Assembly: GCA_016191105.1 (NCBI GenBank)
Contig: JACPPH010000009.1
Coordinates: forward strand, 1-46,951
Length of the DNA stretch: 46,951 nucleotides
Direction of reading: 5' to 3'
DNA from: Candidatus Saccharimonadota bacterium
GTDB taxonomy: Bacteria; Patescibacteriota; Saccharimonadia; CAILAD01; BJGX01
A model generated the notes under the pieces. That model did not search any database. It saw only the letters and a list, made by a program, of their open reading frames with translations, and was not told the DNA's origin. Made by a program: the position numbers and the translations under genes. Below are positions 37,683-38,849 of the stretch, piece after piece; position 1 is the stretch's first letter, and each line of letters begins with the position of its first letter.

Positions 37683-37719
37683 AAAAAGCACTCGGGCCCG
37701 GGGACGAATCCCCGGGCCC
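37683..37719 (-). terminator. Rho-independent terminator closing the tRNA-Ala islet
   Basis: The perfect 11-bp stem is gggcccgggga-cgaa-tccccgggccc, followed on the minus strand by GAGTGCTTTTT. Confidence 0.7.
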
Positions 37720-37747
37720 TACTCGGATTTTGATTGAACCAGTGGCG

Positions 37748-38110
37748 CTACCGATTGCGATGATCCCGAGACTCTCGGTCCACATCAAGGCCGATTACAT
37801 CAACCAGGTGGTCGGGATCTAGAACAATGGACGATAGGCCAGCAGGATTGATACGAACCCCTTCGTCGGTTGCTGAAACAGCTTCGATCCAAGCCAGATT
37901 CCGGCTCAGAATGACCACAGAACCCACCTTGAGATCAGCGGCCCTGATGCTTTCTTGGGTGAGCACCATTTCGTCGTGGGATGTCCACCGCTTACCACAG
38001 CTTGTGCACTGTCTACGACGGCGCTTGTGACCATCGGCGGTTCTTCGTGTCTCGAGCACATTCGACACCGTCTGGCAGTTGGGACAGAACCTATCTAGCA
38101 CAACTTTCAT
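37748..38110 (-). CDS. NrdR-like zinc-ribbon protein without an ATP-cone (120 aa)
   Basis: CPNCQTVSNVLETRRTADGHKRRRRQCTSCGKRWTSHDE matches the NrdR N-terminal pattern CPxC...V..(S/T)R...RRRRxCxxCxxR(F/W)T. The C-terminal 70 aa are unrelated to the ATP-cone. Confidence 0.65.
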   Translation of the reverse strand: MKVVLDRFCPNCQTVSNVLETRRTADGHKRRRRQCTSCGKRWTSHDEMVLTQESIRAADLKVGSVVILSRNLAWIEAVSATDEGVRINPAGLSSIVLDPDHLVDVIGLDVDRESRDHRNR

Positions 38111-38122
38111 CTCACCCCATCC

Positions 38123-38626
38123 TCAGAGTCGAGTGTCTGGTTCGAGCCAGATCACATAGTTGATGTTCTTGATCTGTGCACCCCTAGCTTCGTGAAGAGC
38201 ACGTGATTTCGTGTTCCACCCCCACACATTGGTCTCGATCGAATCGATACCTAGTGTGCGAAAGTGCTTCTTGGTGGCTTCCACCATGGCCTTGCCCACT
38301 CCCTGCCGGCGCTTGACTGGTCGAACCCATTCGGCTTCGATGTAGCCGTAGTCATGATCGGGCCAACCGGGCTTGTCGCGAGTGTGATGCACTGAGAGGT
38401 GGATAATGCCGACAGCTTTGTCTTCTAGAAAAGCCAACAGCAACCACTGTTCGGGGTCGGCCAGCACCTCGCGCACGTACGCTTCGTCACGCGGCCTGGC
38501 TGGCGGTGCTTGCCATGGTTCACACTGCAACACGTGCCAGTCAGCGAAGTCGGTCAGTAAGCGCGAACACAGCAAGATCGTGGCCTGCGACGCATCGCGC
38601 GGCACTTCTTCTACCTTGATAGCCAT
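38123..38626 (-). CDS. GNAT acetyltransferase (167 aa; AAC(6')-like or toxin-like)
   Basis: It has YIEAEWVRPVKRRQGVGKAMV (acetyl-CoA motif A) and NTKSRALHEARG. GGAGGGTGAG lies upstream of the ATG at 38626. The gene is G+C-rich. Confidence 0.75.
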   Translation of the reverse strand: MAIKVEEVPRDASQATILLCSRLLTDFADWHVLQCEPWQAPPARPRDEAYVREVLADPEQWLLLAFLEDKAVGIIHLSVHHTRDKPGWPDHDYGYIEAEWVRPVKRRQGVGKAMVEATKKHFRTLGIDSIETNVWGWNTKSRALHEARGAQIKNINYVIWLEPDTRL

Positions 38627-38628
38627 TT

Positions 38629-38707
38629 GTCTCACCCTCCCTTGGCAAGAAAGGTGAGGGACGTTCCATCTCACCTCCCCGCTCCCATACAGAGAGGCGA
38701 GATGGAA
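38629..38707 (-). promoter_or_regulatory. Leader with mutually exclusive hairpins, one of which sequesters the SD of the GNAT gene
   Basis: On the plus strand: ctcacc at 38631-36 (complement of the SD), aggtgag at 38652-58, ctcacct at 38670-76, ttccatctc at 38664-72 and gagatggaa at 38699-707. Confidence 0.45.
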
Positions 38708-38729
38708 TCGCACTTATTTAAACATGTGT

Positions 38730-38759
38730 AAACAAGAATAGAAAGCTTGAGCTTTCTAT
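38730..38759 (-). terminator. Terminator downstream of tRNA-Ala
   Basis: The perfect 9-bp stem is atagaaagc-ttga-gctttctat, followed on the minus strand by TCTTGTTT. Confidence 0.6.
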
Positions 38760-38772
38760 AAATAATAACTTA

Positions 38773-38849
38773 TGGTGGAGCTAGCCGGGCTCGAACCGGC
38801 GACCTCTTGCATGCCATGCAAGCGCTCTGGCCAACTGAGCTATAGCCCC
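38773..38849 (-). tRNA. tRNA-Ala (anticodon GGC), CCA encoded
   Basis: The reverse complement is GGGGCTATAGCTCAGTTGGCCAGAGCGCTTGCATGGCATGCAAGAGGTCGCCGGTTCGAGCCCGGCTAGCTCCACCA. It has the G3:U70 identity pair and anticodon loop ATGGCAT. Confidence 0.92.

Follow-up and report, generated by a model that had tools for sequence, protein, structure and literature searches.

What is the two-gene unit that lies directly 3′ of the tRNA-Ala(GGC) gene in a 46,951-nt stretch of a Candidatus Saccharibacteria (TM7) genome (contig JACPPH010000009.1), and how did it come to be there? A preliminary description of this stretch, which at its full length we call the window, had pointed to an islet at the 3′ end of the tRNA, made up of a GNAT acetyltransferase and a protein with an NrdR-like zinc ribbon but no ATP-cone. 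It proposed either a toxin–antitoxin pair or a resistance enzyme with its own repressor. We found that the 3′ side of this tRNA is a cargo-exchange hotspot, and that the unit is one module of a longer flexible region. The reading that we favour, with a rough probability of one half, is that the operon is acquired cargo encoding a small-molecule N-acetyltransferase and its own NrdR-ribbon transcription factor, with translation gated by an RNA leader.

All the parts that had been described were reproduced. On the minus strand, tRNA-Ala(GGC) occupies positions 38773–38849 (ARAGORN; 65.7 bits against Rfam RF00005), has its CCA encoded and serves as the anchor of the hotspot. Directly 3′ of it lies a terminator-like hairpin (38738–38759, minus strand), A+U-rich, with 9 pairs and the tail TCTTGTTTAC; as just 3 of these pairs are G-C, the terminator is weak. 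Relatives also bear a terminator at this position, of a different sequence, and about 10 nt after the tRNA (GTTATTATTT) are common to the window and its nearest relative (L002). A structured leader is followed by the open reading frame (ORF) of the GNAT (38123–38626, minus strand, 167 aa, containing YIEAEWVRPVKRRQGVGKAMV) and, after a gap of 12 nt on the same strand, by that of the zinc-ribbon protein (37748–38110, 120 aa). The unit is closed by an intrinsic terminator (37684–37719, stem 37694–37719, minus strand) with a perfect 11-bp stem, 10 of whose pairs are G-C, a UUCG loop and a T-rich tail. The two genes are thus bounded by a weak terminator upstream and a perfect one downstream. We also considered a 196-aa GNAT with a GTG start at 38713 and rejected it: it would turn both leader hairpins into coding sequence, whereas the ATG at 38626 has a strong ribosome-binding site in front of it and yields the 167 aa of the public gene call.

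The unit had also been called G+C-rich, which held in part. Its G+C content is 56.4% against a window mean of 48.6% (2.1 standard deviations above), but 5.3% of equal-sized segments are as rich, and several other stretches reach 56–65%. In codon usage the zinc-ribbon gene ranks 4th and the GNAT gene 9th among the most atypical of 44 ORFs. The composition is suggestive of a foreign origin, yet the unit is not an outlier.

Variable cargo on the 3′ side of tRNA-Ala(GGC)

The Obg protein encoded in the flank shares 66% and 62% identity with proteins from Candidatus Saccharibacteria metagenome-assembled genomes, and the best ~65 Obg-matched loci all belong to Saccharibacteria or Patescibacteria. 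A metagenome scan with the adjacent MTS methyltransferase gave no relative above 62% identity. This suggests that the lineage is sparsely sampled, and it makes a clean empty-site comparison impossible.

The order Obg–MTS–tRNA-Ala(GGC) is kept in about 17 related Saccharibacteria loci; between MTS and the tRNA, the two nearest relatives were the only ones in which tblastn also detected a small membrane protein. The far anchor is kept as well, as a gene of ~110–120 aa followed by a Mur-ligase-like gene (in the window, a 109-aa gene at 32958–33287 and a Mur-ligase-like gene at 31476–32759). Between the tRNA and this anchor, the loci carry from ~55 nt to several kb of unrelated cargo. In two of them (L083 and L093) the 110–120-aa gene begins ~55 nt past the tRNA. 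Elsewhere the same place is taken by a uridine-kinase/CYTH protein (L084), by dihydroorotate dehydrogenase (pyrD), an amidohydrolase and orotidine monophosphate decarboxylase (pyrF; L088), by a B12-binding protein and a YbaK-type editing protein (L091), or by an alpha/beta hydrolase (L099). In the nearest relative, a VanY peptidase is followed by homologues of the 426-aa and DUF5663 proteins of the window.

One further locus, in a metagenome-assembled genome of a related Saccharibacteria member (L069, CAZWVB010000001.1, 9929–16573), carries DNA that starts exactly at the last base of tRNA-Ala(GGC). It reaches 64% G+C over its first 2 kb and encodes a large serine recombinase, an ImmA/IrrE protease, an ArdA antirestriction protein and a DNA methylase; its far end lies outside the fetched DNA. 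This is an integrative mobile element at the same tRNA site.

These observations show that members of this Saccharibacteria clade exchange cargo at a hotspot directly 3′ of tRNA-Ala(GGC), with presence/absence polymorphism among related genomes as in genomic islands. The proposed islet at the tRNA 3′ end is therefore supported, both by the variable cargo and by the integrase-bearing element of L069. However, it exceeds the unit first reported. By synteny across the related loci, the flexible region comprises the whole 5.4 kb between the tRNA and the 109-aa gene (33288–38772, minus strand), with the GNAT, the zinc-ribbon protein, two orphan ORFs, PurM, PurN, the 426-aa protein and the DUF5663 protein. 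Within it, the GNAT/zinc-ribbon operon is the module next to the tRNA and the one that deviates most in composition. As the relatives are distant (Obg at most 66% identical), what has been shown is a hotspot, not a dated insertion.

Much of the hotspot's cargo belongs to nucleotide metabolism (PurM/PurN in the window, pyrD/pyrF in L088, the uridine kinase–CYTH protein in L084); VanY, YbaK and hydrolase proteins are among the rest. Between the operon and purM, two overlapping ORFs on the minus strand (36943–37203, 86 aa, and 37187–37651, 154 aa) have a host-like composition, no match in Pfam, PHROG or PADLOC and no counterpart among the related loci. They may represent one frameshifted gene.

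An independent public assembly of the same sample (L001 and L198; contigs 16080 and 112901 of Logan SRR12113392) breaks within tRNA-Ala, at window positions 38799–38828. We did not retain this break as a sign of population heterogeneity, because a ~30-nt overlap at a conserved tRNA is an expected branch point of a de Bruijn graph. Most probably it reflects tRNA sequence common to other genomes in the sample; alternative junctions within the population could also produce it.

The two proteins and the leader of the operon

Pfam bore out both domain calls, the GNAT and the NrdR-type ribbon without an ATP-cone. The GNAT matches Acetyltransf_1 over residues 32–149 (50.2 bits against a cut-off of 20.7, E = 3.6e-13), and it carries the acetyl-CoA motif A of the superfamily, RRQGVGK, at residues 106–112. 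Its isoelectric point (pI) is 6.4, and in PHROG it matches phrog_1249 at 6e-13. The highest NCBIfam matches are AAC(6′) models, led by NF043067 (AAC_6p_group_E; 41.1 bits, E = 1.5e-10, profile positions 5–128 of 140). In the PDB, the best sequence matches (E = 3e-4 to 2e-3) are plant NATA1 ornithine/polyamine acetyltransferases, an unnamed acetyltransferase, AAC(6′)-Ig and AAC(6′)-Iy. The alignments with the two AAC(6′) enzymes span ~125 residues, and in the HMMER alignment to AAC(6′)-Iy, W37 and E98 of the GNAT correspond to Trp22 and Glu79, which, like Asp115 of that enzyme, we take to have functional roles. The toxins TacT, AtaT, KacT and ItaT gave no PDB sequence match to the GNAT even at E ≤ 10.

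Foldseek, run on a single-sequence AlphaFold model, placed small-molecule amine acetyltransferases (BH1408, Hpa2, NATA1, AAC(6′), AAC(3) and SSAT) above AtaT, with probabilities of 0.9–1.0 for the AAC/polyamine enzymes against 0.4–0.5 for AtaT; as the model is poor, this ranking is indicative only. Judging from the sequence matches and the model, the substrate is more likely to be a small cationic metabolite or antibiotic than tRNA. The preliminary description had held that a place among the housekeeping Rim-type acetyltransferases would speak against its proposals. The GNAT scores 18.1 bits against the rimI model TIGR01575 (cut-off 86.4) and is not of that type, so this point refutes nothing. 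By such scores it falls outside every characterised family.

Two parts can be told apart in the zinc-ribbon protein. Residues 9–44 form a basic NrdR-type ribbon (pI 9.9) with four cysteines in two CxxC pairs (C9, C12, C35 and C38) and the motif RRRR (R30–R33). They score 34.7 bits against PF22811 (Zn_ribbon_NrdR; gathering score 27.2), and NrdR structures match residues 8–52 at E = 2e-3. Residues ~50–120 make up an acidic orphan domain (pI 4.9), predicted to be rich in strands. Over residues 45–120 no Pfam family was matched even at E ≤ 10, and the C-terminal part found nothing meaningful in the PDB. As for the ATP-cone, PF03477 has no match in the protein, and TIGR00244 reaches 29.9 bits against a cut-off of 124.65.

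Searches with both proteins in a word-indexed collection of 5.8 billion protein clusters returned only the proteins themselves; as the index works by words, distant relatives of the GNAT may nevertheless exist. For the zinc-ribbon protein, an exhaustive HMMER search of 1.84 billion representatives (E ≤ 1e-3) gave 105 matches, nearly all through residues 8–50, and no full-length homologue; the few contacts in the C-terminal part were to repeat or low-complexity proteins. The matched proteins are mostly of 55–120 aa with unrelated tails, and share the ribbon consensus CPxC..S.V.DSR...DG..RRRRxCxxCGxRWTT.

In the NrdR of S. coelicolor, R12, R26–29 and R37 clamp the DNA backbone, D15 and R17 read the bases and thus provide specificity, and the ribbons pair into a DNA-binding unit (PMC9110341). 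The equivalent residues here are N17, R30–33 and R42 for the clamp, and E20 and R22 for base reading. Since the contact residues are largely kept, it is reasonable to infer that the protein binds DNA as a ribbon dimer. The C-terminal domain, standing in the ATP-cone's place, may be an oligomerisation, ligand-binding or partner-binding module. In the window there is no match to an NrdR box at up to 3 mismatches from what we take to be its consensus, acaCwAtATaTwGtgt, and no nrd gene is adjacent to the operon.

The leader folds strongly, at z = −6.6 by itself and −8.9 together with the tRNA terminator; no shuffle out of 200 was as good. Its minimum-free-energy and centroid structures are identical. 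Two hairpins are predicted on the minus strand. Hairpin A (38661–38711), an element that occurs once in the window, has ~22 pairs and a 3′ arm, GGGGAGGUGAGAUGG, that resembles a ribosome-binding site. Hairpin B (38631–38658) has 12 pairs, and its 3′ arm is the GNAT ribosome-binding site itself, GGGAGGGUGAG (38631–38641): CUCACCUUUCUU pairs with AAGGGAGGGUGAG, and the AUG follows 4 nt past the stem. An alternative 7-bp pairing joins the 5′ arm of hairpin B (38652–38658) to the 3′ arm of hairpin A (38670–38676, AGGUGAG); this predicted pairing has the geometry of an anti-sequestor. In Rfam the leader fits no family, giving sub-threshold noise only.

The region of the zinc-ribbon gene's ribosome-binding site is unstructured (z = +1.1, centroid without pairs). 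With one site buried and the other open, GNAT translation is predicted to be low and conditional, and translation of the downstream gene freer. This design suits both an enzyme-plus-regulator operon and a toxin–antitoxin pair in reversed order, and cannot tell the two apart.

A 24-bp imperfect palindrome, CTTATTTAAACATGTGTAAACAAG (core TTTAAACATGTGTAAA; 38713–38736), 87% complementary and unique in the window, separates the tRNA terminator from the leader hairpins. It is not an NrdR box. From its sequence and place we regard it as a candidate promoter/operator, and as the sole candidate operator of the unit. A 42-codon ORF (38541–38669, minus strand) also begins in the leader: its AUG lies within the 3′ arm of hairpin A after GGAGGUGAG, and it continues past the GNAT start in another frame. 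Translation of this ORF is improbable, yet it could matter for refolding of the leader.

Explanations for the operon

The favoured reading combines these elements as follows. A two-gene accessory operon would have been acquired horizontally and would now form the tRNA-proximal module of the flexible region. The GNAT would use acetyl-CoA to acetylate the amino group of a small cationic compound akin to an aminoglycoside, a polyamine or an amino acid. Through its ribbon, the 120-aa protein would sit on DNA as a dimer, with RRRR as the phosphate clamp and a Glu/Arg pair at the positions of D15 and R17, and its acidic domain would replace the ATP-cone as the oligomerisation or ligand-sensing part. 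With this build, the protein would serve as transcription factor of the operon that encodes it, and the palindrome that precedes the leader would be the candidate operator. The 12-bp hairpin, by burying the ribosome-binding site, would restrain translation of the GNAT, and given the open site of the second gene, the regulator would be in excess over the enzyme unless the leader refolds.

Several points weigh against this reading. Its substrate, its DNA target and its regulatory link are all inferred from sequence. As neither protein brought full-length homologues, neither covariation nor conservation nor co-occurrence speaks for the leader, for the palindrome or for a link between the two genes. 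Both AlphaFold models are of low confidence (predicted local distance difference test, pLDDT, 49 for the GNAT and 46 for the zinc-ribbon protein, whose C-terminal strands are predicted at very low confidence). The GNAT stays below the cut-off of each AAC(6′) model (41.1 against 140, 28 against 270, 23 against 225 and 22 against 290 bits), and Asp115 of AAC(6′)-Iy aligns with Asn133. The compositional deviation is modest. A scan found no sigma-70-type promoter between the tRNA terminator and the GNAT, and transcription of the operon may rely on read-through that starts at the promoter of the tRNA. Finally, there is no recombinase or integrase within 33288–38772, and the absence of a duplicated tRNA 3′ fragment, already noted in the preliminary description, was confirmed as a lack of such a direct repeat anywhere in the window. 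Lacking both an integrase and an att repeat, the operon is either fixed cargo or a remnant.

The second of these alternatives leads to the explanation that survives best after the favoured one: a decayed phage or integrative element that has lost its integrase and att sites, with the ribbon as a leftover Ogr/Delta or NrdR-ribbon regulator and the GNAT as an unrelated 'moron'. Stand-alone NrdR-type ribbons are indeed frequent in viral contigs. We counted at least 137 such loci in IMG/VR, most of which measure 43–113 aa between the ribbon and the stop codon. In a prophage-like contig (P0076), one adjoins an HTH_17 excisionase and a tyrosine integrase. Around ~65 viral stand-alone ribbon genes, the immediate neighbours include terminase subunits, HNH, HD/YfbR, MazG, ThyX, methylases and integrases, and no acetyltransferase family is among the 25 most frequent of 49 families, as would fit a GNAT unrelated to the ribbon. 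The zinc-ribbon protein has a weak match to Ogr_Delta (E = 0.004), both proteins of the operon have PHROG matches, and the intact element of L069 occupies the same tRNA site. On the other hand, the 12-nt spacing and the shared terminators point to a single transcription unit, and no other phage-like gene lies nearby. Furthermore, neither a tblastn search of 50,697 phage genomes nor the IMG/VR scan found a relative of the GNAT; for the zinc-ribbon protein they gave chance-level or ribbon-only matches. We therefore consider a remnant possible but rather unlikely.

In the IMG/VR loci (L117–L196), ribbon genes often stand beside genes for the large or small terminase subunit, with ~13 terminase family matches among 129 neighbour proteins. 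By analogy with Ogr/Delta, this hints that viral ribbons may regulate late genes or the packaging module. When stand-alone ribbons were used to build a profile, true NrdR proteins dominated its matches, and of three stand-alone matches that we looked up, one was a split NrdR and one was probably truncated at a contig end. In L114 (ENA ERZ23498930 scaffold_3500, 6001–6539), just 3′ of ftsA–ftsZ, NrdR appears to be divided between two overlapping ORFs, one of 88 aa with the ribbon and one of 98 aa with the ATP-cone; the cause could be a true split, a frameshift or an error of sequencing.

The preliminary description had suggested looking for the gene pair in Actinobacteria and their phages. The phage searches just described yielded nothing for such a link, and as far as could be tested, the pair was not found as neighbours elsewhere, an outcome that the preliminary description had itself named as speaking against its proposals. 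Neither the 3 kb around 80 viral zinc-ribbon genes nor ~50 Saccharibacteria loci yielded a GNAT. The ~196 fetched loci were also covered by jackhmmer from the GNAT over all ORFs and by a GNAT profile (built from the window GNAT, AAC(6′)-Ig, AAC(6′)-Iy, 3JVN and NATA1), and both recovered the GNAT itself only. In the literature we did not find such a GNAT/zinc-ribbon pair described. It is worth stressing that with no full-length homologue of either protein, conservation of the pair cannot be shown, and absent homologues are weaker evidence than an observed non-association.

The two functions put forward in the preliminary description fare less well. One is a dedicated aminoglycoside 6′-N-acetyltransferase resistance gene with its repressor, which would benefit an episymbiont whose actinobacterial hosts produce antibiotics. 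What stands of this proposal is that AAC(6′) families dominate the NCBIfam matches and that the alignments with AAC(6′)-Ig and -Iy are near full-length, with the presumably functional Trp22 and Glu79 matched. What does not stand is membership, since every AAC model scores far under its cut-off. The plant ornithine/polyamine acetyltransferases score equally well, the Asp115 position holds Asn, and a pI of 6.4 is less acidic than we would expect, and this is an expectation only, of an aminoglycoside-binding enzyme. A dedicated resistance gene therefore seems improbable to us.

The other function, a non-canonical type II toxin–antitoxin system, would have the GNAT acetylate aminoacyl-tRNA and arrest translation, the acidic domain neutralise it and the ribbon repress the operon, with the asymmetry of the ribosome-binding sites offsetting the reversed gene order. 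A two-gene operon that joins a small GNAT to a small protein with a basic DNA-binding and an acidic part, located in a mobile hotspot, has the outline of such a system, and the asymmetry would yield an excess of antitoxin. A toxin-first order is moreover known for higBA, mqsRA and hicAB. However, each feature of membership that could be examined failed. Neither the PDB search nor the Foldseek ranking on the low-confidence model brings the GNAT close to the known toxins. No DUF1778/RHH domain is present: upstream there are only the tRNA and the non-coding leader, and the sole partner, downstream, is a zinc ribbon. PADLOC gave no match, the pair did not recur, and no internal promoter was found for the downstream gene. 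The pI of the GNAT, at 6.4, is not basic, as we would expect it to be for a tRNA binder. With no positive support left for a GNAT toxin with a zinc-ribbon antitoxin, we hold this explanation to be highly doubtful. A broader form of it, a new design of toxin–antitoxin or conflict module in an ultra-small episymbiont, appears the least probable of all; here an NrdR-type ribbon fused to an acidic beta-rich domain not seen before would both neutralise a GNAT effector and control its transcription, and dosage would be set by RNA structure and not by gene order.

Wider setting and likeness to known systems

Genes of de novo purine synthesis are scattered across the window, several of them G+C-rich. 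Besides PurM and PurN (35166–36927, minus strand), there is a PurB-like gene (11813–13333, minus strand, 57% G+C) and an apparently split PurH, with MGS and AICARFT positions 1–66 at 2726–3490 (minus strand) and AICARFT positions 62–311 at 18545–19540 (minus strand; 61% G+C, 0.72 at third codon positions). To our knowledge, Saccharibacteria usually lack this pathway, so acquisition of the purine genes by transfer is likely. At 10067–10471 (plus strand), a 134-aa ORF of 56% G+C, the 5th most atypical of 44 in codon usage, has weak zinc-finger matches (Zf_WRKY19, 26.3 bits; DUF5763) and is a candidate for another acquired small zinc-binding protein.

Both proteins of the operon are of known kinds, an orphan GNAT and a further PF22811 ribbon whose tail is unique. 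Taken at face value, the operon adds strain-specific cargo to a reduced Saccharibacteria genome, without broader consequences. The hotspot reaches further. The 3′ side of tRNA-Ala(GGC) is a recurrent exchange site for nucleotide-metabolism and cell-wall genes and for one intact integrative element, and thus bears on how genome-reduced episymbionts acquire functions. The NrdR-type ribbons without an ATP-cone, in turn, make up a large class of small proteins, most of them carried by phages, whose tails are interchangeable. Should a toxin–antitoxin or ligand-sensing role prove true, GNAT effectors would gain a partner domain of a new type, and the NrdR ribbon a new sensor module.

Among known systems, NrdR itself (PF22811 + PF03477; 7P37, 9GEX) shares with the 120-aa protein an N-terminal four-cysteine ribbon of ~40 residues with the pattern CxxC...RRRRxCxxC, as well as R42 at the position of R37 and E20/R22 at those of D15/R17. 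The window protein differs in lacking the ATP-cone, in its orphan residues 50–120 and in the Asn that replaces R12, and it has neither an NrdR box nor a link to nrd genes. Closer in size and setting are the stand-alone NrdR-type and Ogr/Delta ribbons of phages (PF22811-only proteins of 50–120 aa; P2 Ogr, PF04606), which have the same ribbon consensus, variable tails and a context of mobile DNA. The tail of the window protein is unique, however, and the phage ribbons neighbour terminases, integrases and nucleotide-metabolism genes instead of a GNAT.

For the GNAT, the nearest comparison is with AAC(6′)-I enzymes (AAC(6′)-Iy, 1S3Z; AAC(6′)-Ig, 4EVY; NF043067). It resembles them in fold, in length, in the motif RRQGVGK and in the near full-length alignment, and differs in its identity of ~20%, its 41 bits against a cut-off of 140 and its Asn for Asp115, with NATA1/polyamine enzymes matching equally well. 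TacAT, AtaRT, KacAT and ItaRT likewise consist of two-gene operons on mobile DNA that pair a small GNAT with a small protein that binds DNA, but their partner is an RHH/DUF1778 protein and not a zinc ribbon, their gene order is the reverse, the window GNAT has no sequence similarity to their toxins, and the pair seen here is not recurrent.

With regard to its location, the operon is best compared with tRNA-linked genomic islands. It departs from them in its size of ~1 kb (5.4 kb for the flexible stretch), in having no integrase or duplicated tRNA 3′ end and in its modest compositional shift. Like them, it lies directly 3′ of a tRNA gene, at a site that varies among relatives and that in L069 holds an integrase-bearing element.

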